Shown here piece after piece: positions 1,443 to 48,422 of a stretch of DNA of 64,000 bases (position 1 is the stretch's first letter; every line of letters starts with the position of its first letter). The position numbers and the translations under genes are program-made. Source of the DNA: Escherichia coli (GTDB taxonomy: Bacteria > Pseudomonadota > Gammaproteobacteria > Enterobacterales > Enterobacteriaceae); NCBI RefSeq assembly GCF_041248615.1, contig NZ_CP158426.1. The stretch is one strand, 5' to 3'. Below the pieces are notes generated by a model that was not told the DNA's origin, did not search any database, and saw nothing but the letters and a program-made list of their open reading frames with translations.

Positions 1443-1443
1443 A

Positions 1444-2727: not shown

Positions 2728-3262
2728 AGAATTTGATTTGGAATTTCTTAAATCTAGATTTTCTGATGCAGATTTCTATTTTTTTGTTTCTAATGATGAC
2801 TCATCTTATATTTCATGCGTAGCATGCTATTGTGAGAGCGCTAATTACGTGGTTGCGAATTGGACAGCGATTCAGAATTATTTATCTGCTTACTACCAAC
2901 CGAAGGATGAATTAGCTCTTTGGAATATATATTTAGTTTTCTTTTGTTCCGAAAAATTACCGATTTGGGATAAGTACCTTATAGATAATGATAAGTATTC
3001 TGTCAGAAAATTAATTATTGACGGGTTAACTACTCTGCCAAGTATTTCCGAAACTGTAACTTTTCTGAACAATCATCTGCTAGGCGCAGACCTAGAATTA
3101 ACTGAAATAGAGGAGAAGAAGGAGATAGAGTTATCATTAATTGAGTATATAAGTGGAACTCCTTTAGATTCAAAGGTTGAGTCGAGAGATGAGCGTATGA
3201 GCAGAATTGATAAAATTATTAATCTAGTGAGTTCAAATAAAAATGAAAATAAAAAAAGTTGA
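2711..3262 (+). CDS. small hypothetical protein, possibly the middle or adaptor component of the ATPase system
   Basis: 183-aa ORF overlapping both neighbours (17 nt and 20 nt), with an acidic, coiled C-terminus. No motif recognised by eye. Confidence 0.6.
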   Translation: MNLLNKEFDLEFLKSRFSDADFYFFVSNDDSSYISCVACYCESANYVVANWTAIQNYLSAYYQPKDELALWNIYLVFFCSEKLPIWDKYLIDNDKYSVRKLIIDGLTTLPSISETVTFLNNHLLGADLELTEIEEKKEIELSLIEYISGTPLDSKVESRDERMSRIDKIINLVSSNKNENKKS

Positions 3263-6200: not shown

Positions 6201-6380
6201 ATTGATCTTCTTAGAAGTATTACCGTTAGATTCAACAAACAAATAATAATATCAACACATGACGACAATTTCTTTGGCTTGCTCCAACGTAAAATCCCTT
6301 CGGAAATATTGGGTGCCAAGTTTCTTAAATTGGAGAAATTTGGGGTTGTAGTGCCTGTTGATGATTTAAATAATACATGA
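3243..6380 (+). CDS. Rad50/SbcC/SMC-like ABC ATPase with a long coiled-coil insert and a central CxxC hook-like motif
   Basis: N-terminal beta-strand plus Walker A (IEGFRAY...YAPNGFGKSSFYDAVEWA). Q-loop-like LSQDE. About 700 aa of E/K/L/N-rich coiled coil. CPLC at residues 524-527 of 1045. C-terminal signature-like FFSAAQLNILSLS, Walker B VIMIDDP, D-loop SMD, H-loop ISTHD. Confidence 0.85.
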   Translation: MKIKKVEIEGFRAYRFKEDGTFDFTNKDDTPSNFVAIYAPNGFGKSSFYDAVEWAITHNLDRFAGEYNKKNYEQAARSTKEDGVAQKILRNKDVPDNIPTRVTVFTTLPTPFEQSLGTVRSDSRDIRIGENKNKINGYFRKVVLSQDEIDRFLKEAKPQDRYKMFMESFGGEWEKARQELTILLNDNKAVLLNLEKNKNELQEQLDQPVDASTFIQFNKIASELVAEGESLPLVDETTIVNTQHELLEKIITRSHEINFSLNKKKILRDSISEYILKFPDISFRTTQIIEKKNRLEKINKGIEDVGRYKTFQSTLEKLTIEKKKISQSLNFIEELDGLSQEFLSLEFNLESARKKHREISYNYENEKTLLDNLFQTRNQNDADLSSIDKRCLSIRSTLENATVTYSNISNIQNKILNIVSTQTELEHKLNQVRSEYQKNKSELNKVSDLTITAKSLLSSDLSLIDLSSDLLKELNNLSQELNILVLHDQSIHNTQESLSAQMGVHERLIASGLEYLSLWPTNICPLCHKPHDSESSLREQVTNTDVISMLSKENAAKLEISSKRRSELNGKIESIVQKALEIKMSKLEVLSKKVNQQGNEIHREEQHYTALLAEKQSVQNQLNELQKAVAGLTKDELLARLDAELKELEAKKNEVIKNKLTLTKNINVKRTLITELSGAINLLNTQIHEMMSSSNYLKTKAYSEENGLSSEFLKEHYDDKRHFYLKNINGLNFEINNITSQLNDLQKAMIADEMWLDYEEMISEKENFEDYISKSEAVLQSYSSLLKQHFELPKYESLVELKDFLISSLDKETRLYNGLEERLGKYNLLSELLKTAESFVKSIKLQNDINETLGLIEIRKEVDLALTKERNQVIEELRNLIKSFFYEELINSIYKRIDPHPSLKKVVFRPDFDSSDKPGLNIVVSDEKGDMVSPILFFSAAQLNILSLSVFLASALHAKDDNGNVIDVIMIDDPIQSMDSINILSTIDLLRSITVRFNKQIIISTHDDNFFGLLQRKIPSEILGAKFLKLEKFGVVVPVDDLNNT

Positions 6381-7696: not shown

Positions 7697-8416
7697 TCAG
7701 AAGTAGGTTGTCCAGAAAGAGGAAACTGGCATCGCCAGTACCAATGCAGGAAGCATACTGGCTACCGGGAAGACCTTGATACCGGAAATACGCAGGCCGG
7801 TCGCCACCATTAGAACGCCACCCACAGCTGAAAAGTCGGCCTGCATGGCAGGCGTGGTCAGGGGCAATATATATATCGCGCTGTAGGCGAGTGCTAACTG
7901 AATGATAAGCTGGGGGAAAGCGACTAATGCCACGGCGTAACCCAGGGTTGTGGCAAAAATGAGGGCGGTCAGCAAATCCAGGAACGCTTTCGCGATAAGG
8001 ATACTCGAGTCCCCGGTCATGCCTTCGTGCATCGCACCAAAAATACCGGTGCCACTGGCACAAAAAAGGACGATGATCGCCACATAGTTTTGTAAAAACT
8101 GCGCCTGTGAGTCTTTGTCTCCGGGATCGCTTTTCACGACGAGCTCCACCAACCCACGGGCTTGTCCGCCCAGGTGGCTTATCCCTTTTTCCAGATAGCA
8201 GAGCTCGCCCACCAGTGTGCCGAGAAGGACCGATAGAACCATGACGGGCATATGGCTGACACTTGTCACAAGGACGATCCCCATACACAGGGAGGCAGCA
8301 CCAAAAATGAGCGGCATTGAGGTACGTAACCTTTCAGGTAGACGTGAGCTAATGATGGCTCCTGCCATCCCGCCGATCACGACGGCAGAGCCGTTGAACC
8401 ATGGGCCTGTAATCAT
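7697..8416 (-). CDS. DUF554 (YqgA-like) inner-membrane protein
   Basis: 239-aa polytopic hydrophobic protein with an N-terminus like YqgA-family proteins (GxxxNxxAVxxGGxxG). Its start overlaps the stop of the UbiX-like gene (ATGA), so the two are co-operonic. Confidence 0.75.
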   Translation of the reverse strand: MITGPWFNGSAVVIGGMAGAIISSRLPERLRTSMPLIFGAASLCMGIVLVTSVSHMPVMVLSVLLGTLVGELCYLEKGISHLGGQARGLVELVVKSDPGDKDSQAQFLQNYVAIIVLFCASGTGIFGAMHEGMTGDSSILIAKAFLDLLTALIFATTLGYAVALVAFPQLIIQLALAYSAIYILPLTTPAMQADFSAVGGVLMVATGLRISGIKVFPVASMLPALVLAMPVSSFWTTYF

Positions 8417-9027
8417 AGCGATTTACTCCTGTTATTCAGGTTGGGAGTTTCACCCCAGCGCGGCAATGTGTCGCAATCAAGGTCGAGTAAACTCAGCGCC
8501 CGCGCAACACTATGAGCGAAGATGTTCTCAGTACTTGCAGGGCGTGCATACCAGGCAGGTACGGGTGGAAAAATGATGCCGCCGGTTTCGGTAACCTGAA
8601 GCATGTTACGAAGGTGCCCGGTATGCAGCGGCGTTTCCCGTACCATCAGAACCAGCCTCCGGCGCTCTTTCAGGGTCACATCGGCTGCCCGCACCAGCAA
8701 ACTGTTGGTTAAGCCCGCCGCAACAGCGGCGAGGGTGTTCATAGAGCAGGGGACAATCAACATCCCGGATGCCCTGAACGAACCGCTGGCGATGTCGGCT
8801 GCAATATCATCAAAGGGATAAATTACATCAGCCAGCTTATGAACGTCGTCTTCTGACAAAGTGGTTTCCAGACTGCGGGTCAGATGAGCGGCAGGAGAAA
8901 TCACAACGTGACTTTCCACGTTAAGTTGTCGCAGATAACGCAGGGCCTGCACTCCATATAAAAAACCGGATGCACCACTGATCCCAATGATGACGCGCTT
9001 GCGAGGAGAACATTCAGATGTCGACAT
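8413..9027 (-). CDS. UbiX-family flavin prenyltransferase
   Basis: 204 aa. Motifs GISGASG, VVISPAA, LIVPCSMNTLAAVAAG and LVLMVRETPLH are typical of UbiX/Pad1. Confidence 0.9.
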   Translation of the reverse strand: MSTSECSPRKRVIIGISGASGFLYGVQALRYLRQLNVESHVVISPAAHLTRSLETTLSEDDVHKLADVIYPFDDIAADIASGSFRASGMLIVPCSMNTLAAVAAGLTNSLLVRAADVTLKERRRLVLMVRETPLHTGHLRNMLQVTETGGIIFPPVPAWYARPASTENIFAHSVARALSLLDLDCDTLPRWGETPNLNNRSKSL

Positions 9028-9037
9028 TATGGCGTCC

Positions 9038-10522
9038 TCAGTACTTGAAGTTATCCGGGAGGAAACGACTGATCTCGACCTCCATGAATTCGCTGCGGCG
9101 AAACTGGCCTTTCATCGTGAACGGAACGGTACAGTCGAAAATAGTTTTACAGGCGATCCCGTGGTCGCGGACGGAGTAACTAAAAGCCGGGTCAGAGGAC
9201 GGATCGAGGGGATGGCACCTTACGCCGGGTATGAACACCGTGCTGATATCCCCCTGATAGCGTGTCGTCATTGCCCATATCACGTCATTGAGATCGAAAA
9301 TATCCACATCGTCATCAACCAGAATCACATGCTTGAGTTCCGAGAATGCGGAGAAGGCCAGAAGAGCCGCCTGGCGCTGACGACCTTCATCGTTTGGCAG
9401 ACGTTTTTTCACCTGCAATACGGCAAGATATTTTCCGGTCCCGGGTGACGGGCAGTGAACATTTTGCACAAAGCCGGGAAGGGCGCGCTCCACCAGTTGC
9501 AGAATACTGGCCTCGGTGGGGATCCCTGCCATATTGGTATGCTCGTCACTTGGACCAATGCAGGTCTGTAGAATTGGGTGACGGCGGTGGGTGATGGCTT
9601 TCACTTTTATCACTGGCACCATTTGCTGTGCCTGTCCGGTATAGCCGGGGAATTCCGGCATGGCTTTACCACTGTTGGTATTTTGATCCTCCCTGACCCG
9701 ATAGTTAGGAATGAGTTCCCCCTCGATAACGACTTCGGCGTTCGCAATGGCCCGGGCATTCACGGTCAGACACTGGCACAGCTCAACAGGCTGTTTACGC
9801 AAGCTCCCTGCCACTGACAGTTCGTCAAAACCAAGTGGAGTTGTGGGCGGTTCGAAGCAGGCACCGATTTCAATGGCTGGGTCAACACCAATGCTGATCG
9901 AGATGGGAAGTGGGGCCCCATCTTCCTCTGCTTTCTGACGGAACAAATCCAGATGCCGACCGGGAACGAAGTACATGGATATTTCATCCCTGTTTTGCAC
10001 GCACAGTCGGTGAATAGTGATGTCATGCTCGCCGGTATGTGGATCGGCGGCGTAGCACATACCGAGAGTGAAGTAAGGACCGGCATCCTCCGGCGTATTC
10101 GTGGGTGCTGGCAGGATATTGAGGATACTGAAATCCGGATCGGATGCCAGATGGACTACTTCCTGACAGACGGCATTTTCCTGCGGAATAACGACAGGAC
10201 TTATCGGGGTGCTTACCGCGTCTTTCAGTAAAAAGGCCAGCTTATCGGGTGTGGTATCCAGTAGCCGGGCCACGCGTTTTCGCGAGGCGAGAAGACCTAT
10301 CAGCACTCGCATATCGGTATAGCCTTTAATCCGGTTAAAGAGCATGGCTGGACCGATACGAGTCGGACGCATGACCGTACCGTGTGCCCCAATGTAGCGG
10401 TACACCCCTGACAGTTCTGCACTTGGATCAACGGGTTCATCGGTTTCGATAAGCTCATCATCAAACTTGCGCAGTACGGCCAGCGCACTGCGTAGGTCAG
10501 TCACTTTTTGTGTTTGAGACAT
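9038..10522 (-). CDS. UbiD-family (AroY-like) reversible aromatic-acid decarboxylase
   Basis: 494 aa with a full-length UbiD-family pattern (VDP..EL.GVYR, IHRLCVQ, EFPGY, PTEASI, ILVDDDVDIFD, WAMTTR). It sits directly upstream of the UbiX-like gene. Confidence 0.9.
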   Translation of the reverse strand: MSQTQKVTDLRSALAVLRKFDDELIETDEPVDPSAELSGVYRYIGAHGTVMRPTRIGPAMLFNRIKGYTDMRVLIGLLASRKRVARLLDTTPDKLAFLLKDAVSTPISPVVIPQENAVCQEVVHLASDPDFSILNILPAPTNTPEDAGPYFTLGMCYAADPHTGEHDITIHRLCVQNRDEISMYFVPGRHLDLFRQKAEEDGAPLPISISIGVDPAIEIGACFEPPTTPLGFDELSVAGSLRKQPVELCQCLTVNARAIANAEVVIEGELIPNYRVREDQNTNSGKAMPEFPGYTGQAQQMVPVIKVKAITHRRHPILQTCIGPSDEHTNMAGIPTEASILQLVERALPGFVQNVHCPSPGTGKYLAVLQVKKRLPNDEGRQRQAALLAFSAFSELKHVILVDDDVDIFDLNDVIWAMTTRYQGDISTVFIPGVRCHPLDPSSDPAFSYSVRDHGIACKTIFDCTVPFTMKGQFRRSEFMEVEISRFLPDNFKY

Positions 10523-10710
10523 TACGTTTTCCTCAGTAAGTCGCCGGGAGACAGCATGCCCGGTGTGCTTTTATCTTCATCCTGCAGGCAATCACAGGAC
10601 GAGCCGTTACATCACTGACAGTATGTGAGGCAACATAAATCCCCGTCTAATCACATTAACGACGTTTTTAATGTGGGATTGTTATCGAAAAATAGTGATT
10701 GGAGGAACGT

Positions 10711-11592
10711 GTGGACTATCGGTATTTGCATGCATTTGTGGTGCTTGCCAGAGAACTGCATTTTGGAAAAGCCGCACTGCGGCTCAACATCACGCAGCCA
10801 GCCTTAAGCCGTCAGATTAGAGTGCTGGAAGATCAGCTTGGCATGGTGCTATTTACGCGTGATCGTCGTCATGTGGCGCTGACTGTGGAAGGAACTCAGC
10901 TTGCAGCGGAGGCGCGGAGCGCCGTCAGTCATTACGAAAAAATGCTGAGCCGTGCGAGTAGCCTTCGAAAAGGCTATAAAGGACAACTCATACTGGGTTA
11001 TGTCGGATCTTCCATTCTTGATCCCGCCCTGACACGGTTAATCACCTGTTTTCGCGAGACTAAACCGGATGTTGAGATTGTTATTGAGGAGCACAACGTT
11101 GACGAACAGCTCACCCTCCTGCTCGACCATCAACTGGATATGGGGCTGCTCCGATCGCCTGTTCCGCATTTTGCCAACCTGGACTACGTGGATATCGCCA
11201 CCAGGTCACTCATCGCCGCAGTACCGCACACGCATCCGCAGGCAGGAGTCGGTAAAATAGAGCTGGAGACGTTGTCCGGGGATACATTTATGATCCAGAA
11301 AGATCCGCCCGGGGTCGGGCTAGGCTGGTCTGCATTACATGCCTGTGAGATGGCCAGTTTTGTCCCACCCAAAATCTATTTTACTCGCGATGTTGCGGTG
11401 GCTATTGGCATGGTGTCGATGGGAATAGGAGTTACGCTGGTGCCAGAAACCCAGCGTTCTGTAACGTTGCCTAATGTCTGCTACTGCCTGCTGCACGATC
11501 CCGAGGTCACAACGACCTTAACGCTTTGCTGGCCGAAATTCAGGAAAAGCAGGGAATTGATAGAGTTTGTACGCTCTTTAACGCTTGGTTGA
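10711..11592 (+). CDS. LysR-family transcriptional regulator, divergent from the decarboxylase operon
   Basis: N-terminal HTH YRYLHAFVVLARELHFGKAALRLNITQPALSRQIRVLE plus a LysR substrate-binding domain. GTG at 10711 gives the canonical MDYRYL start; the tracked ORF starts at TTG 10699. Confidence 0.9.
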   Translation: MDYRYLHAFVVLARELHFGKAALRLNITQPALSRQIRVLEDQLGMVLFTRDRRHVALTVEGTQLAAEARSAVSHYEKMLSRASSLRKGYKGQLILGYVGSSILDPALTRLITCFRETKPDVEIVIEEHNVDEQLTLLLDHQLDMGLLRSPVPHFANLDYVDIATRSLIAAVPHTHPQAGVGKIELETLSGDTFMIQKDPPGVGLGWSALHACEMASFVPPKIYFTRDVAVAIGMVSMGIGVTLVPETQRSVTLPNVCYCLLHDPEVTTTLTLCWPKFRKSRELIEFVRSLTLG

Positions 11593-11703
11593 ATCTTAAG
11601 AAGCTGCAGTTGAGTCATAGCCAGCGATCAAAATTGAGAAGACAAAACCGGGGAGAGGTGCCCGCAGTTTCTGCCCCAGCTCCCATCTTCAGGAAGATGT
11701 GTT

Positions 11704-11907
11704 TCAGGAATGCATTCGTGATGCTGGGGATAGCGGCAAGACGATTTTCTCATCGGGTAACTCTGCGGTATCGGAACAGTTGACGACGGCAGGGTGGTGA
11801 ATGGGAACCTCAGGATGAAGCGCTCGGGCAAGAGGGATGGACTGTGCTGAAGAGAACACTGACAGAACGAGCATGATGCTTGCAAAAAGGGGACTCTGGA
11901 TATTCAT
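11704..11907 (-). CDS. small secreted hypothetical protein
   Basis: 67-aa ORF with AGGAG upstream of the ATG and a signal-peptide-like N-terminus (LVLSVFSSAQS). Confidence 0.45.
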   Translation of the reverse strand: MNIQSPLFASIMLVLSVFSSAQSIPLARALHPEVPIHHPAVVNCSDTAELPDEKIVLPLSPASRMHS

Positions 11908-12133
11908 TGTTTATCTCCTGATGATATTCATCGCTCCAGAGAATACGCTTGCCACTCTTTTTATTTGTTTTCCTGAATTAAAAATGCCCGGTTTTATGTG
12001 GTTCTTCCGTAAACGTTATTACATTAATTAACATCTAGTTTCTATCTCCGAAATGAGGTAAAAAAATAATTGTCGTGGTTTTTATCAAACAAATTTACCG
12101 GCAGCTCAGATCCGAACTAATACCTGGAAATTC

Positions 12134-12182
12134 AAACCCCAAACCCCAAACCCCAAACCCCAAACACCAAACCCCAAACACC
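12134..12182. repeat. heptanucleotide tandem repeat: (AAACCCC)x5 plus (AAACACC)x2
   Basis: Read directly: units at 12134, 12141, 12148, 12155, 12162 (variant), 12169 and 12176 (variant). The complement is GGGGTTT, a G-quadruplex-type run. Confidence 0.95.
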
Positions 12183-12412
12183 ATTTCACCGCTGGCGTGT
12201 AAGGGGCTCTATATCTGTTTATTCAGGGATAGTTTTTTCTCCCGTGTGATTTCCGTTCATGTATCTGCTTCCGGTTAATCGTTTCCCAGCACAACCCGTC
12301 CCGCAAGGGTAAATGGCACGCCTGCTGCGCCCTTGCGGGATGGAACGATGCCGGGAAAGCGAACCGTCAGGCGATACGAAGACGAAAATCACACCACTGA
12401 CGGAGAAAAAAA

Positions 12413-13357
12413 ATGACTATGTCCCTGCATACCAAGATAAGTGCCCCTAACACGACAGCGGCGACCAGCGTATCCTCGCTGGATCTGTCAGGCTCCTCAA
12501 AAACGAAATGTTCAACAGCCAGAACCGATATTTATCAGACTGTTACCGACAGCATAATTGCGGCGCTGGAAACCGGAGTAAAACCTTGGGTGTGTCCTTG
12601 GCAGCGAGCTCCCGGTATGTCCGGTTTACCGTCCAATTACGCCACTGGTAAGGCTTACAGCGGAATGAATATCATGTTGCTTTGGTGCAGCGCGTCAAAA
12701 CAGGGATTCTGTGATTCACGCTGGATGACCTACAAACAGGCAAAAGCGGTAGGTGGGCAGGTGCGCAAGGGAGAACACGGCACTACCGCGATTTTCTATA
12801 CCACGCTGGAAAAGGAAAATGATAACGGAGAAACTGACTATATTCCTATGCTGAAAGCATTCACTGTGTTTAATGTTGAACAAATTGACGGTTTACTCCT
12901 GAGTGATGATGCCGTTTTTCCGGCAGAGATCTTTGAGCCATTACCACGTGCAGAAGCACTTTTTCGTAGTAGCGGTGCAACCATTATTGAAAAAGGACAG
13001 AATGCTTTTTTTACACCATCAACCGACGAAATTCGCTTACCTGAACGGTATCTTTTTATTGATGCTGCTAATTTCTACGCAACCGGCCTGCATGAGCTCG
13101 TTCACTGGAGTGGGGCAAAAAGTCGGCTGAACCGTGAAATGAAAGGGAAATTTGGCAGCGAGGGGTATGCGTTTGAAGAGTTGATCGCTGAGCTGGGGAG
13201 CGCATTCCTGATGGCGGATCTGGGGATAGTTGGAGAAGTTCTGCATGACAGTTATATCGCTTCCTGGCTTAAAGCACTGAGGAATGATAAACGCTATATT
13301 TTCAAGGCCGCCAGCGCGGCATCGAAAGCACATCGCTATTTGATGGATAAAAGCTGA
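12413..13357 (+). CDS. ardC: ArdC-type antirestriction protein (N-terminal ssDNA-binding domain plus zincin metalloprotease)
   Basis: N-terminal YQTVTDSIIAALETGVKPWVCPW and GMN..LL motifs of the ArdC N-domain. C-terminal HELVHW zinc-metalloprotease motif. 314 aa. Confidence 0.85.
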   Translation: MTMSLHTKISAPNTTAATSVSSLDLSGSSKTKCSTARTDIYQTVTDSIIAALETGVKPWVCPWQRAPGMSGLPSNYATGKAYSGMNIMLLWCSASKQGFCDSRWMTYKQAKAVGGQVRKGEHGTTAIFYTTLEKENDNGETDYIPMLKAFTVFNVEQIDGLLLSDDAVFPAEIFEPLPRAEALFRSSGATIIEKGQNAFFTPSTDEIRLPERYLFIDAANFYATGLHELVHWSGAKSRLNREMKGKFGSEGYAFEELIAELGSAFLMADLGIVGEVLHDSYIASWLKALRNDKRYIFKAASAASKAHRYLMDKS

Positions 13358-13365
13358 GTAGCAAA

Positions 13366-13387
13366 AAGCCGCAAAGGAATGCGGCTT
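13366..13387 (+). terminator. possible terminator hairpin after ardC
   Basis: AAGCCGCA / TGCGGCTT 8-bp stem with a 6-nt loop, 9 nt after the stop. There is no strong T-tract. Confidence 0.4.
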
Positions 13388-13479
13388 AATGGGCTGGGGG
13401 TACTAAACCAGTAAAGGTTTAGTCAGTAATATTAGTGAAGCAGAGCAAGTATCGAACAGTCATATTCCTGTAGTGGTAT

Positions 13480-13918
13480 TAAGACAACCTTAAGAAGGGA
13501 CTGATGTATAGCTACTCTTGTATACCCATCCATGGAAAATTCGGTTGTATTGCCGGGTTGATATGTGCAGGTTGGTCCCGACCCAAGAAGTTTTTACTGT
13601 GAAAATTGTCAAACTATATCAATGTGGTAACAGCTTCTCTTGTCCCTTTGGTTATTTCAAATTGGACCGGGCTATCTGTTGCAACACGGTTGCTCTGCTT
13701 GAAACAGAGTTAACATATGCAACATCAGATACTTTGAGTTTGATCAGATCATAGCCTCGTAGCTTACTGTCCAAGGTCATATTGAACAGAGTTAAATCGC
13801 GCATTTTACCTTCCATTTCAAGCCTGATTCGGATCCCCCCTGATATGAGATATCTGAAGTGGTCTTTTTGGTCAGTGATACTTACAATACGGTCTTTGTC
13901 CCACGGTGACGTGTTCAT
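13480..13918 (-). pseudogene. decayed tyrosine recombinase (small-integrase family) gene
   Basis: MNTSPWDKDR...DLTLFNMTLDSKLRGYDLIKLKVSDV matches the N-terminal half of small enterobacterial integrases. After ...RATVLQQ the frame breaks. A shifted frame continues PVQFEITKGTREAVTTLI, then a stop. Confidence 0.6.
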
Positions 13919-14200
13919 ACTCAAAGCTCCTGTAATGTTGGAGATTTGAGCATGGTTATCCCTCATGAGCGAGGAACGGACAATGTCCCTTGCGCGATCC
14001 AAGATTGATTTTTCTTATTAAATTAAGCTATGGCTGACCTACGAACGATAGGCAAAATGCTCCTAAAGCTACGGCTTATGACAGTAAAAAACATATTGAT
14101 AAAAATCTGAGCTGGTTTAGAATGCTATAATGGAATAATTATTTATTTTCGGCCTTCAGTTTGATCATTTTTAGAAATCACCCTTTTGAAGGAATCTACA

Positions 14201-14995
14201 ATGGAATCAGAAGAAACGAAAGAAGAGAGTTATCAACAGCGTTCGGAGTTTATCAGAAAAATAATTCAACAGCCTGTTGAGGGTGTCATATCTTCATGCA
14301 CTATACCAAAAAAAATAATTCAATTTTGGGATTCATCCAATACTATCCCTAATGATGTCAGACATTGCATGAAATCATGGCGTATCTTAGAACCTTTTGG
14401 GTATGAGTATTTACTATATGATTTCGTTAGCGCCCAAGAATTTATTAAACATAATTTGGGTGAAACATACAGTGAAGCTTTTGCCAAGTGTACTCATCCT
14501 GCTATGCAATCAGATTATTTCCGATTATGTTATATCTCGGTAAACGGGGGATTTTATGTTGACACTGATGATGTTTATCTGGGTAGTGAGATAAGTAGTT
14601 TTTTCACGGATGATAAGTTAAAAATACAACCTTTATGCTACGATATTTCCACCGATTCTATGATTCCACCAGAAATTTTTACAAAGGAAAATACTTATGA
14701 AGAATCTTGGATTTTTTATTTCAACAACAACCCGTTAATTGCTCCGCCTCATCATGTTATCATTGATAAGGCACTAGAGCAATCCACATACTTACTTAAT
14801 AAATCAAGCTATCCTCTCACAGATATTCAGTCAACAACTGGTCCTGGTAATCTATCTAAATCTATTTTCTCGTGTCGCGAGGAAATAGATTTATTATCCC
14901 AGATTACGGTAGTATCAAACTGGCAAGATATTGCAGAAACTAAGTGGGATTTAGAATACAGAGCTGATTCTAGAAATTGGCGCTTGATGAATTAA
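14201..14995 (+). CDS. DXD-motif glycosyltransferase (Gly_transf_sug / Och1-like sugar-binding region)
   Basis: IPKKIIQFWDS..IP, QSDYFRLCYISVNGGFYVDTDDVY (DxD). AAGGA lies 7 nt upstream of the ATG at 14201. Low GC. Confidence 0.75.
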   Translation: MESEETKEESYQQRSEFIRKIIQQPVEGVISSCTIPKKIIQFWDSSNTIPNDVRHCMKSWRILEPFGYEYLLYDFVSAQEFIKHNLGETYSEAFAKCTHPAMQSDYFRLCYISVNGGFYVDTDDVYLGSEISSFFTDDKLKIQPLCYDISTDSMIPPEIFTKENTYEESWIFYFNNNPLIAPPHHVIIDKALEQSTYLLNKSSYPLTDIQSTTGPGNLSKSIFSCREEIDLLSQITVVSNWQDIAETKWDLEYRADSRNWRLMN

Positions 14996-15010
14996 CATGG
15001 ATTTTTAATA

Positions 15011-17212
15011 ATGAACATTAAAAATAATTTGAAAGGTATTAGCCGTTTTTTTTATTCTTTTTACTTACGCTCTCGGTTACTTCTCCCAGCGCAAAAATCA
15101 TCGACCTTTAATACATTAAATCAGAATGAAGGCGTTATTAGCAGGATTTACGCTATAAACTTAGAACGGGAAGCGATTAGATGGGCAGATTTAAATAAAG
15201 AACTGGGTAAAATACTAGATAAATCTAATAAAAAATTAACGAGCCAATTAACCAGATTCTCTGCTATAAACGCCAAAGAAATGTCAGACATTCTCAATGA
15301 GGAAGAGGTTATTCCTTATTATACTTTAGCAGACCAGTTGTACGTTGACCCTCAACCAAAAATCTTACCCGATAAATTTGATCTCGATGTCCCTATAAAA
15401 ATGAGTAAAGCGGAAATTGCTGTAGCATTATCGCATCTAAATGTTATTAGGCTTGTTGCAGAAGGTTCTGATGCATATGCTTTAGTGCTTGAGGATGACG
15501 TGTATTTTGAAAGAGATTTTGCCAAAACCTTAGATGCTGCTTGGTCTGAAATGATTCAAGCTGACAGATCTTCACCTGGTTTTGATATCTTATATTTGTC
15601 ATTTAAAGAGGTTATGAATGGCGCGAAAAAGAAAATTATTTCGAAAAGCATATTTAAACCAGAGCGAGGGTTATGGTATTTTTCAGGATATGTATTATCT
15701 AAGAAAGGAGCAAATAAAATCCTCTCACTCCTCCCAACTTATGGACCAATTGACTTATGGATAAATCATCAATTTGAGAAACTCGATGTGAGGGCAGTAT
15801 ATAAGTCGATCATTTCTCAGAGGTTGGATTTTAACTCTTCAAATTCCTATTCAATATTACCTACCTTAGTGAAGATTGGTATTATTGACAATGAAAAAGC
15901 TTCCAGTTTTAATGAACTTCCAAATTATTGGCCTGTTTTTGCATTTGGTGTAAGTGGTTCGGGTATTTCTTCTTTGGGTATGGCACTATCAATGCTTGGC
16001 TATAAGTGTTGTAGTGATATTGATAGACTTCCCAATGCAGACTTAAAAAATCTATTAAGTAATTCAGAGCAGAATGAATTCAATGCTTATGTAAATGTTG
16101 GCTGTCTCAGTAAGTATATCGGCATATTAAAAAAACAATATCCAAAAGCAAAATTTATAATTACCACGAGTGAATCAAAAGAAATCGAAGATGTTATTTT
16201 TAATATAATTGAGGAGATCGTTGATACTGACTATGTTGTATTGCATTCAGATGAAAAAAACAAATGGAAGGTTATATGTGAATACCTTCAATGCCCACCA
16301 CCTATTTCAGCGTACCCAGAAATGGCTGACATTATTCCTAGGCAGATTATAGATATCACCAGTGCAGCACAAATCAATAATTCAGAAATTAACATGATAC
16401 ATGACATTTCCCCTTGGATATTAGAAAGAAAGAATTTTTCAGGAAATGGTTTTTTTATAAAAGATAATCCGAAGAGAATTGAAAAAGAGCTTGCTGATTT
16501 CTTCATTAATGATTCACTACAAAATATTAATAATAACTATTGGGAAATTCGCGATGATACTTTCCCTGGAAATCTTGGACTGTTTCGACCTCAAAATGTG
16601 ATTCAAAATGATATTAGTGGTTTAGGTCTTGTAGTTAAGGAGGAACAGTTAGGCGTTAGAGAGTTTAGTGCTGCTGCGATTTCAAGTAGAATGAAGTTCC
16701 TATATGGCCGATTTGAAGTGTCCCTACGAGCGGCAAATGTTGCAGGGATAGTAACCGGCTTCTTTTTACATAGAGATTCGCCTCGTCAAGAAATCGATAT
16801 TGAGTTTGTTGGAAATCGATCTGATCATATGTTGATCAATGTTTTTTATAATCCTGGTGATGAAGGTGCAAAGTTTGATTATGGATATCGTGGTACACCA
16901 ACTCTTATTCCTTTAGGTTTTGATGCTTCTGAAGAGTTTCATGATTACATGATTGAATGGAGTCCTGATGAGATAAAATGGTTTGTGGATGGAGTTATGG
17001 TTTATCGTAGAGGAGTTTGGGGGCCTACACCTATACCTCATTTACCCATGACCCTTCATGCTAACACTTGGCCAACCCGTTCCAAGGAACTGGCGGGACG
17101 TCTCCACACGCGTTCCTTACCCTGTATCACTTATATTAGGAAAATATGTATTGATGCAACAATGGATGTTAATAATCCAAAATTAAATGACCAGACAGTA
17201 GTGGCTGGTTAA
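15011..17212 (+). CDS. three-domain enzyme: GT25-like glycosyltransferase, then a P-loop (sulfotransferase-like) region, then a GH16 domain
   Basis: N-terminal IYAINLERE...EIAVALSH..LVLEDDV resembles the GT25 family. Middle region GVSGSGISSLGMAL is a P-loop-like motif. The C-terminus has the canonical GH16 catalytic motif EIDIEFVG and a ConA-like fold pattern. No signal peptide was seen. Confidence 0.7.
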   Translation: MNIKNNLKGISRFFYSFYLRSRLLLPAQKSSTFNTLNQNEGVISRIYAINLEREAIRWADLNKELGKILDKSNKKLTSQLTRFSAINAKEMSDILNEEEVIPYYTLADQLYVDPQPKILPDKFDLDVPIKMSKAEIAVALSHLNVIRLVAEGSDAYALVLEDDVYFERDFAKTLDAAWSEMIQADRSSPGFDILYLSFKEVMNGAKKKIISKSIFKPERGLWYFSGYVLSKKGANKILSLLPTYGPIDLWINHQFEKLDVRAVYKSIISQRLDFNSSNSYSILPTLVKIGIIDNEKASSFNELPNYWPVFAFGVSGSGISSLGMALSMLGYKCCSDIDRLPNADLKNLLSNSEQNEFNAYVNVGCLSKYIGILKKQYPKAKFIITTSESKEIEDVIFNIIEEIVDTDYVVLHSDEKNKWKVICEYLQCPPPISAYPEMADIIPRQIIDITSAAQINNSEINMIHDISPWILERKNFSGNGFFIKDNPKRIEKELADFFINDSLQNINNNYWEIRDDTFPGNLGLFRPQNVIQNDISGLGLVVKEEQLGVREFSAAAISSRMKFLYGRFEVSLRAANVAGIVTGFFLHRDSPRQEIDIEFVGNRSDHMLINVFYNPGDEGAKFDYGYRGTPTLIPLGFDASEEFHDYMIEWSPDEIKWFVDGVMVYRRGVWGPTPIPHLPMTLHANTWPTRSKELAGRLHTRSLPCITYIRKICIDATMDVNNPKLNDQTVVAG

Positions 17213-17383
17213 TCATTAGAGTGAAAAGTAAATATTAGTAAGGCACTGGTAAAAATGTAGACACTATCAGTGCCTTAGTAGTTATCCCTCTGGATGGTTT
17301 TTTGACAATAATTTCCGTTTCTGGCACGGAACGGACAGAAAGCAGGGCCACCAAATCTCTCACGAGCCAAAAACCTAAATTAT

Positions 17384-17490: not shown

Positions 17491-18342
17491 TCAGGAGGCA
17501 TAAACTGAAAGGAGTTCTTTAGCTGCCAATTGACCAAGTGCGTTGGCTGCAAAAGGACTGTCACCTGTCAGTACCTTACGATCTTTGTATACGCTTCCTT
17601 TAATATCATCATTAACAATATTCATCCCCATTTGCTTAAGTGCATCGCCAAAATACCATGTGAGATGGCCCGGCATATAACCAATGTCAGGCGTCTGCTT
17701 ATCAGCTGAATCAGGGAAAGCGCAAATAGAATACTCTTTTAGAGGGTTTTCACCATTGCGCAGCGAAAGGAATGCTGCTGGGCCATGGCAAAGGGATATG
17801 ACGAAGCGGTCATTGTCCATGAACCAGCGAAGAGTATCGGCTACTGCGCTGCTTTCTGGCAGCCCAATCAGTGCGCCGTGGCCACCAGGAATAAACACGG
17901 CAGCATATTCACTTTGCTTGTTCAGGCTATTCAATACATCAGACAATTTTTCAGGATTTTGGAACTTGTCTCTATACCGGCTGAAAAATGGCATAACTTT
18001 CTCATCCTTGTGCGGCATGGCCCAGTATTCGAACTTTGTCATGTAACCTGAGATTGTCGCAATGTCAAAATCAAAACCAGCAGCATGCAGGTGATACATT
18101 GGAATAAGCGTTTCAACAGGATGGTTTCCCGTTGAGAACAGAGCCCCGCTATCAGTCATCAGGTAACGCTCATCCGCAGCGATGACCAGCACCTTCTTCC
18201 CTCCCATGCACTGTTTGGGATAGTCGTAGTCACTAAGGTCAGATACGGGGCTGGTAAACTGACTAAGGGAATAGTCAGAGGGGAAAAATGCGTTTTCTTC
18301 AGCATGATCCACTTTCGGATGTTTACTTTTATCATTTGTCAT
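17491..18342 (-). CDS. hchA: Hsp31/HchA-family glyoxalase III / protein deglycase (DJ-1/PfpI), a diverged paralog
   Basis: 283 aa from the internal ATG at 18342 (MTNDKSKHPKVDHAEENAFFPSDYSLSQ...). It is collinear with E. coli HchA as I recall it, including the ISLCHGPAA nucleophile elbow, but clearly diverged. The tracked ORF's 54 extra N-terminal codons run into IS2. Confidence 0.9.
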   Translation of the reverse strand: MTNDKSKHPKVDHAEENAFFPSDYSLSQFTSPVSDLSDYDYPKQCMGGKKVLVIAADERYLMTDSGALFSTGNHPVETLIPMYHLHAAGFDFDIATISGYMTKFEYWAMPHKDEKVMPFFSRYRDKFQNPEKLSDVLNSLNKQSEYAAVFIPGGHGALIGLPESSAVADTLRWFMDNDRFVISLCHGPAAFLSLRNGENPLKEYSICAFPDSADKQTPDIGYMPGHLTWYFGDALKQMGMNIVNDDIKGSVYKDRKVLTGDSPFAANALGQLAAKELLSVYAS

Positions 18343-18514
18343 TACGTATTCCTCGTTGATTGGTGTTAACTCTCTTTCTCGGGCCTGAATTCGCCTGTTA
18401 TATGGGCGACCAGGATAGCCTGATAGACTGGCCCCATGAATCTCCAGACAACCAATATCACTTAAATAAGTGATAGTCTTAATACTAGTTTTTAGACTAG
18501 TCATTGGAGAGCAG

Positions 18515-18880
18515 ATGATTGATGTCTTAGGACCGGAGAAACGCAGACGGCGTACTACACAGGAAAAGATCGCTATTGTTCAGCAGAGTTTTGAACCGGG
18601 AATGAAGGTCTCCCTTGTTGCCCGGCAACACGGTGTGGCAGCCAGCCAGTTATTTCTCTGGCGCAAGCAATACCAGGAGGGAAGTCTTACTGCTGTGGCC
18701 GCAGGAGAGCAGGTCGTTCCTGCCTCTGAACTTGCTGCTGCCATGAAGCAGATTAAAGAACTCCAGCGCCTGCTCGGCAAAAAAACGATGGAAAATGAAC
18801 TCCTTAAAGAAGCCGTTGAATACGGGCGTGCAAAAAAGTGGATAGCGCACGCGCCCTTATTGCCCGGGGATGGGGAGTAA
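18515..18880 (+). CDS. insC: IS2 transposase OrfA (InsC)
   Basis: 121 aa: [29 protein letters not shown]... matches IS2 InsC. Confidence 0.9.
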
Positions 18881-19743
18881 GCTTAGTCAGCCGTTGTCTC
18901 CGGGTGTCGCGTGCGCAGTTGCACGTAATTCTCAGACGAACCGATGACTGGAAAGATGGTCGCCGCAGCCGTCACTCAGATGATACGGATGTGCTTCTCC
19001 GTATACACCATGTTATCGGAGAGCTGCCCACGTATGGTTATCGTCGGGTATGGGCGCTGCTTCGCAGACAGGCCGAACTTGATGGTACGCCTGCGATCAA
19101 TGCCAAACGTGTTTACCGGATCATGCGCCAGAATGCGCTGTTGCTTGAGCGAAAAACCGCTGTACCGCCATCGAAACGGGCACATACTGGCAAAGTGGCC
19201 GTGAAAGAAAGCAATCAACGATGGTGCTCTGACGGGTTCGAGTTCCGCTGTGATAACGGAGAAAAACTGCGAGTCACGTTCGCGCTGGACTGCTGTGACC
19301 GTGAGGCACTGCACTGGGCAGTCACTACGGGCGGCTTCGACAGTGAAACAGTACAGGACGTCATGCTGGGAGCGGTGGAACGCCGCTTCGGCAACGAGCT
19401 TCCGGCGTCTCCAGTAGAGTGGCTGACGGATAATGGTTCATGCTACCGGGCTAATGAAACACGGCAGTTTGCCCGGATATTGGGGCTTGAACCGAAGAAC
19501 ACGGCGGTGCGGAGTCCGGAGAGTAACGGCATAGCAGAGAGCTTCGTGAAAACGATAAAGCGTGACTACATCAGTATCATGCCTAAACCAGACGGGTTAA
19601 CGGCAGCAAAGAACCTTGCAGAGGCGTTCGAGCATTATAACGAATGGCATCCGCATAGTGCACTGGGTTATCGCTCGCCACGGGAATATCTGCGGCAGCA
19701 GGCCAGTAATGGGTTAAGTGATAACAGGTGTCTGGAAATATAG
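18838..19743 (+). CDS. insD: IS2 transposase OrfB (InsD). The active enzyme is made as an InsCD fusion by -1 frameshift.
   Basis: 301 aa with the DDE/rve-domain pattern of IS2 InsD. It overlaps insC in the -1 frame. Confidence 0.9.
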
Positions 19744-21106: not shown

Positions 21107-23032
21107 CTAAAAGTTCAGTAACGAGGGATGATCCTCTTTACCTGCACCTGCACCTGCACCTGCACCTGCACTTGTTGTTGTGTGTTTCTCGTCCGGCTTG
21201 TCAAAAAAGAGATCGGGTTGTGTTGTCGTGATAACTGATGTTGATGACGGTCCGGATGACATTTCTTCCTCGTCAAAATTCAGGGCAATGTTGACTCTTG
21301 CGGCGGTGGCGGCAACAGCGGGCGATACGGCACAGATCGCCAGTTCCCTTTTTTTAACCCTGATGGGAGAAATTAGTGAAGCAGAGGGGAGGGCTTTGGT
21401 GGTGAATATAAAACTGACAAAATCAGGCAGGTTCAGCACCATATTACTGTCGATAAAGAAACGCTCGGCCTGCCTGATGGTGCGTTCACTATCGATAGTC
21501 TCTGTCAGCACCGCATCTGTTTTGGCTTTGCGGACTTCGTCATCGACTAATATGGTGCCTGACATTCTTGCCACCCAGTCAGCGGTATCAGGGTCCATGA
21601 CACGATAAACCAGCTTGAATTTGGCATTCTCCACAACTGCACCCACCACGGCATCGCTTTTCAAATCCGCCGGGCAATCTTTTAAATCGGCAATGGATTG
21701 GTGGTCCATAATAATGTGTACACCTTTATCCCGTGCCGCACCTAAGCCTTCCAGCGCAGGCTTGGATAAATGGTATTTCAGTTCGGAAAGGTAAATAGCA
21801 ATAGGGCGGGGTGTGTGGTTTACCCGATCGCGCCTTTCTGCCAGCTGGTACAGGCGAACCAGCAGCATGCGCTGAGCGGTAATAATTTTGCTGTTGCGCA
21901 TCGAGCCAATCACATAGCAGCAACCACCGTTATCAAATATTGTATTGAGGGAAAATCCTGCCGGTGCATTGATGGCATTGAGTAAGGCCAGCTCCTCAAT
22001 TTTCCCGAAAAAGGCTTTTATCTTATCAGCGATACTTTGGACGTATTCCCCGTTATACACATCCCGAATGGTTGAGGTCGTATTACGGGCGACAAATTGT
22101 GCAGCTATTCGGGCTGCTTTGCGATCGTCAATGCGATAAAAGTCAGACTCTTGTCCTTTCTCTGCCAGACTGAAACCCGCGACAAAAAGTTCTTCCAGTT
22201 CATCAGCGGTGATATCGTTAATCAGGTTTAGCTGGTATGCCTGTTTCCTCAGGTCAATTAGGGCAAAGGATTTCCCTGCATCCTCGCAGGCTTTCCGGTA
22301 AAGGTGTGGGGCCCACTCATCATCTTTGGGGTCCATAACAAATACGCCTTCACCGGCCAAAATACTCTGATAAAGTAATATCCCGGTGGCCACCCCTTTA
22401 CCGGCCCCCGTGGTCCCGATGATATCGGCATGTTGTTTTTGCCAGTCTTTTAACGGCAGGTACATCGGCTGTTTCATTCTGTTCATGCCGATAAAAATAC
22501 CTTTACTCAGGTTAATATAATCCTCCGGGTTATAGTGCAATGTTTCCGGTAGCAGCGATTTCACCGTTCGGACATCAGTACGTAATTCCCTTTCCAGAGT
22601 GGTTTTTCTGACGAACCGACTTTTTACTTTATCGAGTTCAGGTGTTAACACCCTGCGCAGAAGAATATGGAAAACAAAACCGGCTGCGGTAGAGGTAATC
22701 AGTATCAGCCAGGAGAGGACAGTATTGCTGGTGGCTATCTTTATTCGGTATATCCATTGAAATAATTCGTTCACCACGGGCGCTATTGTGCCAAACAAAA
22801 AGCACAGTATGGAAAAAACTATCACCAGCTTTTTCCATAAAGGGGCTTTGAGTCGTTCATCGCTTTTCATCGACGCGAAGAATGGCATGGTCAGCCCTGA
22901 GAATAGCGCCAAAATAGGTTGATGCTGGTGCATAAAAACGAGCAGTCCCAGCATGCCGTCCACTATCGGTGATAGTGAAACGATCAGCTTATTTAACACC
23001 ATAATGCTTCCTTTATCGGCCATTCGCCCCAC
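21107..23032 (-). CDS. mobB: type IV coupling protein (TraD/VirD4/CloDF13 MobB-like T4CP)
   Basis: N-terminal TM segments. Walker A IIGTTGAGKGV, Walker B-like VFVMDPKDDE, and a TraD/TraG C-terminal pattern. 641 aa. Confidence 0.9.
   Translation of the reverse strand: MGRMADKGSIMVLNKLIVSLSPIVDGMLGLLVFMHQHQPILALFSGLTMPFFASMKSDERLKAPLWKKLVIVFSILCFLFGTIAPVVNELFQWIYRIKIATSNTVLSWLILITSTAAGFVFHILLRRVLTPELDKVKSRFVRKTTLERELRTDVRTVKSLLPETLHYNPEDYINLSKGIFIGMNRMKQPMYLPLKDWQKQHADIIGTTGAGKGVATGILLYQSILAGEGVFVMDPKDDEWAPHLYRKACEDAGKSFALIDLRKQAYQLNLINDITADELEELFVAGFSLAEKGQESDFYRIDDRKAARIAAQFVARNTTSTIRDVYNGEYVQSIADKIKAFFGKIEELALLNAINAPAGFSLNTIFDNGGCCYVIGSMRNSKIITAQRMLLVRLYQLAERRDRVNHTPRPIAIYLSELKYHLSKPALEGLGAARDKGVHIIMDHQSIADLKDCPADLKSDAVVGAVVENAKFKLVYRVMDPDTADWVARMSGTILVDDEVRKAKTDAVLTETIDSERTIRQAERFFIDSNMVLNLPDFVSFIFTTKALPSASLISPIRVKKRELAICAVSPAVAATAARVNIALNFDEEEMSSGPSSTSVITTTQPDLFFDKPDEKHTTTSAGAGAGAGAGKEDHPSLLNF
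21140..21170. repeat. in-frame hexanucleotide repeat (ACCTGC)x5 encoding (Ala-Gly)5 in the T4CP C-terminal tail
   Basis: Read directly. It corresponds to SAGAGAGAGAGK, 11 residues before the stop. Confidence 0.9.
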
Positions 23033-43943: not shown

Positions 43944-43986
43944 TAAAGTAATTCGGCGAATAGGTTTTTATTTTTAAAGGTTAGTT

Positions 43987-45739: not shown

Positions 45740-45934
45740 TAGGTAGCCAATATCGCAGAGAAAATAAGAATTGAGGAATTGTTTATTGCGAAACCGTGCG
45801 AGTAGATGGTAATTCTGGTAGGAATATCATTTACGATTGATCAATTTTCCCACGGACTATATGCGATAAAATAACTTTGTCGATGCATGAAATAGCAGCT
45901 TCATTTTGTTAAAAGTAATAATAAAGGTGTAATT

Positions 45935-46552: not shown

Positions 46553-46883
46553 CAAGGTTTTCCTTGTCAGATCATCTATCAATGACGATAGAATTCTGAA
46601 AGGCGTAATCTCAAGCCATCGGTATCAAATCCATGCGCCCGAATGTGTTCTTCTGGGGTCCAAAATTGTCTGAGCTCCTTTGGTTTTGCACCAATGGACA
46701 AGATTCTGTGAGGTATATCGGACAATGCCTCACCTATAGCATGAATTGTCGTTCCTTCTAGGTATGGTTAACCTAGCCGGTTTATTACTACATGTCGTGG
46801 CAACTCCAGCGGAGTACATAATAGTCCATTCAGCATTGTTACTTTTTGTGAACTAGACTGGAAAAGAACTGGGTCAAATCACA

Positions 46884-48158: not shown

Positions 48159-48422
48159 AGAAACCCCATGATCATTGTTTAAGTTCATTTTTAGAGTGTT
48201 TTTTAAATATGGAGAGTCTATTAAAAGCTTTTGAATATAAAATAAAACTGTCAGTTCTGACAGGAGTGTTTTTTATTTTCAATTAAATTATTAAGCATTT
48301 TTTCGGAGATGTGGGTTTTTTACACGGTATTAGCGAAACGGTTTGCCATGTAGTTTGGACAAAGTAAAAAGCCGCATCAGTCTGCACTGATGCGGCTTTG
48401 ATTTGTCAGGGTGACTAAATCA

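Follow-up and report, generated by a model that had tools for sequence, protein, structure and literature searches.

Why should a mobile element of Escherichia coli carry a glycoside hydrolase family 16 (GH16) domain that is joined to a glycosyltransferase (GT) and has no export signal? The question is raised by a pair of genes in a 64,000-nucleotide stretch of contig NZ_CP158426.1 (RefSeq assembly GCF_041248615.1), hereafter called the window. An earlier note, made from the sequence of the window alone, had described a low-GC two-gene module with a 15-nt gap, and both open reading frames (ORFs) are as described. Gene 1 (14201-14995, + strand) encodes 264 amino acids (aa) from the ATG chosen by RefSeq, with an AAGGAA Shine-Dalgarno sequence 7 nt upstream and an alternative TTG start at 14186; gene 2 (15011-17212, + strand) encodes 733 aa, and the intergenic gap is exactly 15 nt. 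The GC content of the module is 0.352, against 0.508 in the left flank and 0.478 in the right flank. RefSeq labels gene 1 “glycosyltransferase family 32 protein” and gene 2 “family 16 glycosylhydrolase.” We propose, with a probability of roughly 0.45, that the pair is a self-contained mobile operon for cytoplasmic glycan assembly and remodeling, probably at the inner membrane face and probably serving phage or mobile-element conflict. The parts of the two genes are listed here.

14201..14995, + strand: GT32-family (Och1-like, DXD) glycosyltransferase, 264 aa (Pfam PF04488; RefSeq label)
15011..17212, + strand: GT25/putative pseudo-sulfotransferase/GH16 fusion, 733 aa (Pfam, homologues, and AlphaFold2 [AF2] model)
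15017..15082, + strand: N-terminal cationic amphipathic helix, aa 3-24, not a signal peptide (AF2 model)
15137..15820, + strand: GT25 (GT-A fold) domain, aa 43-270, with the DXD motif E161-D162-D163 at nt 15491-15499 (PF01755)
15923..16300, + strand: shortened sulfotransferase-fold domain, aa 305-430, with the loop GVSGSGISS at nt 15947-15973 and an R/K-C-C-S-D motif at nt 16004-16018
16490..17167, + strand: GH16 beta-sandwich, aa 494-719, with E594-I-D596-I-E598 at nt 16790-16804 and the insertion YNPGDEGAKFDYGYRGTP at nt 16847-16900 (PF00722, Foldseek)

The earlier note had assigned the two outer domains of the fusion to GT25 and to GH16 with an intact EIDIE motif, and profile and structure searches bear out both assignments. 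Glyco_transf_25 (PF01755) matches aa 45-242 with E = 7e-15 (55.8 bits; cutoff, 24); the PDB matches of this domain are to procollagen galactosyltransferase 1 (E ~ 4e-6), its matches in the viral structure library BFVD are viral GT25 proteins, and relatives carry the JGI name [quoted passage not shown] (LPS, lipopolysaccharide). Glyco_hydro_16 (PF00722) matches aa 544-694 with E = 4e-31 (108 bits; cutoff, 22), and the domain, with its EIDIE motif at aa 594-598, superposes on the lichenases 1mac, 3i4i, and 1gbg (Foldseek template modeling [TM] score, 0.83 to 0.87; E ~ 1e-19). In 30 of 30 diverse fusion homologues (mean column identity, 64%), neither the GT25 EDD triad (aa 161-163) nor the GH16 residues E594, D596, and E598 vary. 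The region between these domains, as the same searches indicate, has a nucleotide-binding (sulfotransferase/P-loop kinase) fold. The protein falls far short of the NCBIfam equivalog thresholds for BglS (106 bits versus 300; E = 2e-30) and ExoK (59 bits versus 350), which places the domain in GH16 but outside these characterized enzymes. In BFVD, we found single-domain GT25 or GH16 relatives only and none with the same architecture.

An AF2 model built with 30 homologues (predicted local distance difference test [pLDDT], 75) places a helix at aa 3-24 and a GT-A domain of alternating beta strands and alpha helices at aa 43-270; these are followed by a disordered linker, a five-stranded alpha/beta domain at aa 305-430, a second disordered linker, and the beta-sandwich at aa 494-719. 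Neither protein has a hydrophobic signal-peptide core or a transmembrane segment (maximum Kyte-Doolittle hydropathy over 19 residues, 1.37 for the fusion and 0.68 for the GT32 protein), so that the missing export signal, which the earlier note had called odd, is real. The N-terminal helix instead has a net charge of +3 to +6 and a mean hydropathy of about 0 across homologues, with R22, P26, and F33 invariant. The marks of a secreted effector or exoenzyme, a hydrophobic N-terminal core and conserved secretion genes among the neighbors, are both missing.

This architecture is widespread and stable. A protein search of 5.8 billion sequences returned 1,736 matches; among the best 120 of these, 119 span 714 to 764 aa with both Pfam domains (49 to 100% identity), and one is 560 aa long. 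When representatives of 50%-identity clusters were scanned exhaustively with HMMER, 183 matched at E ≤ 1e-30, about 40 full-length clusters among them. The possibility that the fusion is an assembly artifact with split homologues, which the earlier note had allowed for, was rejected; full-length fusions are the rule. Relatives occur in 224 of 185,579 species (one genome per species) from more than 12 phyla, and all of them are 48 to 59% identical to the E. coli protein except one enterobacterial copy at 80%. The lineages include Pseudomonadota, Acidobacteriota, Nitrospirota, Planctomycetota, Chloroflexota, Bacteroidota, Omnitrophota, Actinomycetota, Bacillota, Verrucomicrobiota, Gemmatimonadota, Desulfobacterota, and others. 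Conservation is equal (~50%) in monoderm lineages without LPS (Desulfosporosinus, Clostridia, Actinomycetota, and Chloroflexota), and the hosts, both monoderm and diderm, are mostly free-living bacteria of soil, sediment, and water. Of 5,426 complete E. coli genomes, 4 carry the cassette. Its distribution is sporadic and driven by horizontal transfer.

Gene 1 is a member of GT32: it matches Pfam Gly_transf_sug/DXD (PF04488) with E = 1e-8 (36.2 bits; cutoff, 23), carries DTDD at aa 121-124, and has Och1 alpha-1,6-mannosyltransferase as its best PDB chain by sequence, at a weak E of 0.023; a match to Caps_synth (PF05704) is sub-threshold. Four motifs, HP, DYFR, DxDD (nt 14561-14572), and TGPG (nt 14837-14848), are at least 95% conserved in 75 GT32 homologues. 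In 79 of 82 loci, the gene immediately preceding the fusion gene is a GT32 homologue (44 to 83% identity); in the other three the fusion gene is at a contig end. Most loci have the two genes −4 to +35 nt apart, and in a mirror-tree comparison of 75 loci, the pairwise identities of the GT32 protein and the fusion correlate with r = 0.90. Together, these results argue that the GT32 gene is an obligate partner that coevolves and is coinherited with the fusion gene.

To which larger system, if any, does the pair belong? All-against-all clustering of 1,128 flanking ORFs from the 82 loci identified a single further conserved family, a NodU/CmcH-type carbamoyltransferase (Carbam_trans_N/C; E ~ 1e-55) present in 46 loci; any other neighbor occurs in at most 6. 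Placement of the carbamoyltransferase gene tracks the phylogeny of the fusion: it is directly downstream in one clade, divergent upstream in another, and absent from several, including the Enterobacterales/Pseudomonas clade to which the window copy belongs. Among 139 ORFs that immediately flank the cassette, the most frequent Pfam families are Phage_integrase, AAA_15, AAA_21, SMC_N, and UvrD, and the families most often seen in about 260 flanking ORFs from 70 loci include no flippase, polymerase, exporter, sugar-nucleotide gene, or additional glycosyltransferase. Such genes would mark an O-antigen, capsule, or lipooligosaccharide (LOS) locus; here, GT32 and the carbamoyltransferase are all that is conserved, and the flanks are rich in integrases, insertion sequence (IS) elements, and defense ATPases. 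Of the two roles that the earlier note had suggested, that of a host- or competitor-directed effector therefore loses ground, given free-living hosts in more than 12 phyla and no linkage to secretion systems; the other, a transglycosylating role in building a surface glycan, survives in part, as transglycosylation within glycan building is the most economical reading of the GH16 domain and a surface-glycan locus finds no support in the flanks (~260 genes, 70 loci), where the neighbors are integrases, IS elements, and defense systems.

The middle domain bears on whether the product is sulfated, as the earlier note had considered possible. Sulfotransfer_4 (PF17784) matches aa 309-353 at E = 2e-3 (18.6 bits, under the cutoff of 22.8) and over the first 50 of 215 profile positions only, and the domain has the sulfotransferase/P-loop kinase fold. 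Its loop GVSGSGISS (aa 313-321) corresponds to a consensus F-G-x-x-G-S-G-L-S-S in 30 homologues, with G318 invariant and no position with a conserved Lys or Arg; after strand 4 (AKFIVT) the residues vary, and there is no conserved Arg in these homologues. R/K332-C333-C334-S-D336, W419, and C423 are invariant. A metagenomic relative, P0159 (797 aa, 35% identity), scores 97.6 bits against Sulfotransfer_4 and has a 5′-phosphosulfate-binding (5′-PSB) loop, GLRKTGTTSL, and a 3′-phosphate-binding (3′-PB) motif, LTTRDVEDWLRS. Aligned with P0159, the E. coli clade is about 35 to 40 residues shorter, and the deletion removes part of the substrate lid. An active P-loop binding 3′-phosphoadenosine 5′-phosphosulfate (PAPS) was rejected for the E. 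coli clade, in which the 5′-PSB Lys/Arg and the 3′-PB Arg are gone. The resemblance to a PAPS-binding loop that the earlier note had seen extends to fold and sequence homology, but the loop has none of the basic residues by which PAPS-binding and Walker-A loops are defined, and with these losses and the deletion, a sulfated glycan is not supported for this clade. As far as sequence can tell, the domain is a shortened pseudo-sulfotransferase; the ancestral enzyme probably sulfated its product, and the E. coli protein probably does not.

Two homologues, P0147 (SRRTATT) and P0142 (DRRGADL), have loops intermediate between that of P0159 and the degenerate GSGLSS of the main clade. P0159, P0147/P0142, and the main clade form an evolutionary series from a canonical PAPS-binding site (RKTGTT, TTRD...W..S) to a degenerate loop. 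The Sulfotransfer_4 enzymes of known structure, schistosome SULT-OR (5tiv and 5tiz) and Streptomyces Cpz8 (9kf2), share the fold and detectable sequence homology with the middle domain, whereas the E. coli clade lacks their 5′-PSB Lys/Arg, their 3′-PB Arg, and the ~35 to 40 residues of the substrate lid.

A second set of relatives informs the role of the GH16 domain. Five uncharacterized proteins of 808 to 929 aa (P0201, P0204, P0219, P0224, and P0238), also recovered by the HMMER scan, combine a processive-type GT2 and multiple transmembrane segments with a GH16 domain of the same clade, 43 to 46% identical to that of the fusion and with the same catalytic motif. The cleft insertion of about 18 residues is homologous as well (YNPGDEGAKFDYGYRGTP in E. 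coli, YNPGDAGDRYNYGYRGTP in P0201). These proteins may make and process a beta-glucan; hydropathy counts are inconsistent as to the membrane side of their GH16 domain. They share the GH16 clade, catalytic motif, and cleft insertion with the fusion and differ from it in having a membrane-embedded GT2 synthase instead of GT25. The repeated pairing of this GH16 lineage with glycosyltransferases speaks for a role in processing what the attached transferase makes and against one as a free glucanase.

The cassette travels on mobile elements. Its carrier in the window is an integrative and conjugative element (ICE) at a tRNA-Asn gene (tRNA, 49856-49931, − strand; integrase, ~48423-49694) that also carries MobC, a coupling protein, and a VirB-type type IV secretion system (T4SS). 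An ArdC-family antirestriction gene (12413-13357, + strand) immediately precedes the cassette and shares its strand, and an ABC-three-component system lies 8 to 14 kb upstream. The following features delimit the transferable unit and its expression signals.

13966..17327, + strand: transferable cassette block (extent of DNA homology to the copy on a Klebsiella IncFII plasmid)
13517..14002, − strand: decayed copy of a ~200-aa tyrosine recombinase gene, with a frameshift and internal stops, 82% identical to both copies on that plasmid
14096..14123, + strand: promoter-like TTGATA-16-TAGAAT (10 of 12 consensus positions; weak, as such sites are not enriched relative to shuffles of the region)
17236..17302, + strand: probable operon terminator, a hairpin with a 13-bp stem 24 nt past the stop codon, followed by a T-run

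The terminator hairpin has a predicted RNA folding energy of −26.8 kcal/mol (z = −3.1 versus shuffles) and, with its T-run, probably terminates the operon; an Rfam search for cis-regulatory RNA gave no near-threshold match. The cassette block is 84% identical to positions 9958-13328 of the Klebsiella michiganensis IncFII plasmid (L002) and 79% identical to Serratia proteamaculans over 14136-17232. On the plasmid, the cassette lies on the same strand within the ssb-parB-psiB-psiA leading region and is bracketed by two recombinase genes (8697-9299 and 13356-13958) that are 94%-identical direct copies of 200 aa. This arrangement suggests recombinase-associated movement of the cassette among enterobacterial elements, and its same-strand siting after ardC or ssb-parB-psiB-psiA may represent leading-region placement. 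A search for terminal repeats of the cassette in the window found chance-level short repeats only. The GC content of the cassette is foreign in Enterobacterales and host-like elsewhere.

Full-length copies are present on nine plasmids (the Klebsiella plasmid and eight others), and three IMG/VR contigs carry the cassette, two of which are genuine prophages. One of these is P2-like (GPO, terminase, and portal), with the cassette and a Dam methylase gene directly beyond the portal gene; this site is the cos-proximal gpA-gpQ region, a published defense hotspot (PMC9122126; PMC13586616). In the second prophage, a gene for a Lit-like Peptidase_U49 adjoins the cassette. Defense-type or mobility genes also lie near the cassette on Aliarcobacter plasmids (Lit, Shedu, and patatin), on a Citrobacter IncC plasmid (DUF262 and IS21), and on plasmid pSWIT02 of R. 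wittichii (an Abi protein), as well as in other loci with a TCAD9/AAA system, SIR2, integrase, and PIN; with BrxR and Mrr; with SNF2-PLD and Eco57I; and with HicAB, DUF932, and ParA. Neighbor clusters that recur in at least three loci include large serine recombinases in six, tyrosine integrases in four, and UmuD-like proteins in three. The recurring defense clusters are a Mokosh-like (MkoA-like) helicase in four loci and, in three loci each, GajA/GajB of Gabija (E = 1e-295 and 1e-238), BilD of Bil (1e-145), and SIR2 (1e-93). There is also a PHROG match to a “moron/host takeover” glucosyltransferase. The earlier note had overlooked this placement as mobile cargo in defense hotspots, along with the carbamoyltransferase in many relatives and GT32 as the apparent obligate partner.

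How might such a pair of genes act? The two genes supply three carbohydrate-active modules with intact catalytic motifs (GT32, GT25, and GH16), with the decayed sulfotransferase fold as a central scaffold. GT32 is a retaining family that forms alpha-linkages, and GT25 is an inverting family that forms beta-Gal or beta-Glc linkages. We suggest that the two transferases add sugars from nucleotide-sugar donors in the cytoplasm to give a short glycan and that the GH16 domain, a retaining beta-glycanase of the lichenase, xyloglucan endotransglycosylase, or Crh type, would trim the beta-linked product or move it en bloc. The cationic amphipathic N-terminal helix may dock the enzyme on the membrane or on a partner. 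Because the cassette functions in monoderm and diderm hosts, the acceptor should be universal; a precursor linked to undecaprenyl, or some cytoplasmic molecule present in both, would qualify. The selective value could lie in remodeling of a receptor or envelope glycan that gives exclusion, or in another glycan-based defense or antidefense. Since the cassette rides alone on ICEs, plasmids, and prophages into defense and moron hotspots, a role in conflict appears the most likely one. A more specific version, which we advance tentatively and consider on balance unlikely, is that the cassette is a phylum-spanning immune or counterimmune system of mobile elements that works by glycan chemistry, for example, by rerouting a glycan on an undecaprenyl-linked precursor to exclude phages or DNA.

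Several points weigh against the proposal of a glycan-assembly operon in the service of conflict. The link to defense is guilt by location; any accessory cargo gathers in variable regions. Eleven of about 56 well-flanked loci have any of five defense clusters within 8 kb, a raw count without a genome-wide background, and a two-component pair recurs in five loci, as often as the defense clusters do. There is no copy in the INPHARED phage genomes, and neither the GT32 protein, the fusion, nor the carbamoyltransferase has a match in PADLOC-DB v2 at E ≤ 1. On the enzymatic side, the interdomain arrangement in the AF2 model is unreliable (predicted TM score [pTM], 0.45), membrane docking of the helix is read from its composition only, and the GH16 domain could be purely hydrolytic. 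The assignments of donor, acceptor, and product come from families and context, not from biochemistry or phenotype, and we found no published description of the architecture or of the gene pair in the literature. Each domain's family is known; what would be new is their combination as a fused GT and GH enzyme for glycan building, to which the link with immunity is a credible but unproven addition.

Could the pair instead tailor a surface polysaccharide, extending or branching units of LPS core, LOS, O-antigen, or capsule that the host's flippase and ligase export, with a change of serotype or immune evasion as the benefit? GT25 is a family of LOS and LPS-core enzymes, the sub-threshold Caps_synth match of the GT32 protein points the same way, an amphipathic N-terminal helix would suit a peripheral membrane glycosyltransferase, and prophage- and plasmid-borne modification of surface glycans is known from gtrABC seroconversion. 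We nevertheless consider this explanation unlikely: the cassette is never inside a glycan locus, Wzx, Wzy, and ABC exporters are not among the commonest flanking families (~260 ORFs), conservation is equal (~50%) in monoderms without LPS, and a GH16 domain and a carbamoyltransferase are foreign to known LOS and O-antigen tailoring modules. The want of polymerase or lipid-carrier genes, together with the minimal, self-sufficient enzyme set, would suit a small soluble glycoside or oligosaccharide that many lineages carbamoylate and a few sulfate and that acts as a diffusible natural product, be it a chemical defense, a signal, or an osmoprotectant. Tailoring of natural-product type fits as well, with a carbamoyltransferase of NodU/CmcH/TobZ type in 46 of 82 loci and, in P0159, a canonical Sulfotransfer_4 domain akin to that of the caprazamycin biosynthesis enzyme Cpz8. 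This second explanation strikes us as quite unlikely, since no exporter, regulator, or resistance gene is conserved alongside in the 82 loci, the E. coli clade has neither tailoring activity, and GH16 acts on polymers and oligomers, not on small aglycones.

The siting in defense hotspots and the PHROG match are compatible with abortive infection or antidefense by glycosylation of a macromolecule, in which a transferase would modify a phage or host protein or nucleic acid and the GH16 domain would reverse or sense the modification. Both enterobacterial copies lie beside same-strand ardC or ssb-psiB-psiA genes, and leading regions are reported to be enriched in antidefense genes (PMC11541004). 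Against it, the long GH16 cleft (lichenase-like; TM score, 0.86) fits glycan chains rather than the removal of single sugars from proteins or DNA, there is no sensor, nuclease, or toxin-antitoxin-like partner, and matches to toxin glycosyltransferases (YeGT and MavL) are insignificant (E about 1), which makes this reading very doubtful. Finally, GH16 enzymes are usually extracellular, the best NCBIfam match is the BglS beta-glucanase (E = 2e-30, far under its cutoff), and the E. coli copy rides on an element that encodes a T4SS, all of which could suggest a secreted effector or toxin or a catabolic enzyme acting on external or imported beta-glucan. We regard this as highly improbable: there is no signal peptide or transmembrane segment, the GH16 domain is always fused to one nucleotide-sugar-dependent transferase and paired with another, no sugar-uptake or catabolic genes are linked, many lineages and contexts have no secretion system, and the near-invariant, family-specific insertion at the cleft points to a substrate that is not mixed-linkage glucan.

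Cytoplasmic assembly and remodeling of a glycan, the explanation that we prefer, has precedents among known enzymes. The cyclic beta-glucan synthases NdvB (GT2 plus GH17) and Cgs (GT84, a cyclase, and GH94) likewise join a glycosyltransferase to a retaining hydrolase or transglycosylase domain in one intracellular polypeptide, and by analogy, the hydrolase-fold domain of the fusion would remodel the product of the transferase. Where those synthases have GT2 or GT84, the fusion has GT25 and a GT32 partner, and where they have GH17 or GH94, it has GH16. It has no transmembrane channel, includes a pseudo-sulfotransferase, depends on a separate GT32 protein, and is mobile cargo, not a chromosomal housekeeping or symbiosis gene. 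The Bacillus lichenases (1mac, 1gbg, and BglS) share the GH16 fold (TM score, 0.86) and an E-I-D-I-E-F catalytic strand without a beta-bulge, whereas the GH16 domain of the fusion is 25 to 30% identical to them, carries a conserved 10-residue insertion beside the cleft, and is intracellular and fused. GT25 enzymes of the Lic2A/LgtB/LpsA type and ColGalT1 have PF01755 and the DXD motif in common with the fusion; they are single-domain proteins or carry other modules, belong to LOS loci or the eukaryotic endoplasmic reticulum, and are in no case joined to GH16 or a sulfotransferase fold. The gtrABC morons are also small glycosyltransferase cassettes at cargo hotspots of mobile elements that plausibly give exclusion. 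The gtr systems rely on a bactoprenol-linked sugar, a flippase, and a periplasmic GT-C and serve one lineage and one O-antigen, in contrast to the present cassette, which is wholly cytoplasmic, has no membrane proteins, and spans many phyla.

If the cassette affects the success of phages or plasmids, it would add carbohydrate-active enzymes to bacterial conflict systems; among the described defense systems that we searched, we found none that builds a glycan. The proposal, if true, would also explain a gene pair of hundreds of genomes and metagenomes that is labeled only “family 16 glycosylhydrolase.” Whatever its ecological role, the pair couples a cytoplasmic GH16 domain to two glycosyltransferases in a compact natural form that is relevant to glycoengineering through en bloc transglycosylation, and its family documents how an active sulfotransferase domain decayed. 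Some carriers are clinically relevant, namely, the E. coli ICE and the IncFII and IncC plasmids of Klebsiella and Citrobacter.

The ICE in the window carries other cargo. At 390-6380 (+ strand) a low-GC (0.31 to 0.34) block encodes a ComEC/Rec2-family protein and, after it, the “ABC-three component system” of the RefSeq annotation, a conflict system on the same ICE that comprises an ABC-3C protein, middle component 1, and a 1045-aa AAA ATPase. Metabolic cargo with a GC content of about 0.53 occupies 7697-11592: DUF554, a UbiX flavin prenyltransferase, and a UbiD-family decarboxylase (− strand), with a divergent LysR regulator. Directly after the cassette is an extra glyoxalase III (hchA) gene (17491-18342, − strand), whose longest ORF, 17491-18504, reaches 54 codons upstream of the annotated start, and this is followed by an IS3-family element with a programmed frameshift (18515-19743, + strand). 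The ORF of the type IV coupling protein (21107-23032, − strand) encodes an (Ala-Gly)5 repeat, AGAGAGAGAG, near its end and then an acidic tail. Near the integrase end, at ~43300-48160, are two porin genes, amiA, a major facilitator superfamily transporter gene, and a FecCD-type ABC uptake system (RefSeq; L087). The ICE integrase and tRNA-Asn are followed by mtfA and tRNA-Ser (50923-51012), all within 48423-51012, and a lambdoid prophage with a frameshifted integrase, an exonuclease, dicB, and ydfABC begins at ~51040, so that two elements sit at adjacent tRNA genes.

Two observations concern individual loci outside E. coli. On plasmid pSWIT02 (L096, 9001-13781), the cassette is broken: only the GH16 half of the fusion is annotated, and an IS4 transposase lies between it and a truncated carbamoyltransferase, an example of decay on a catabolic plasmid. 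Two further loci (L043 and L044) lie on identical 28,293-bp contigs that were deposited as metagenome-assembled genomes of Gallionella sp. and Methylobacter sp.; because the sequences are the same, one of the two binning assignments must be wrong.

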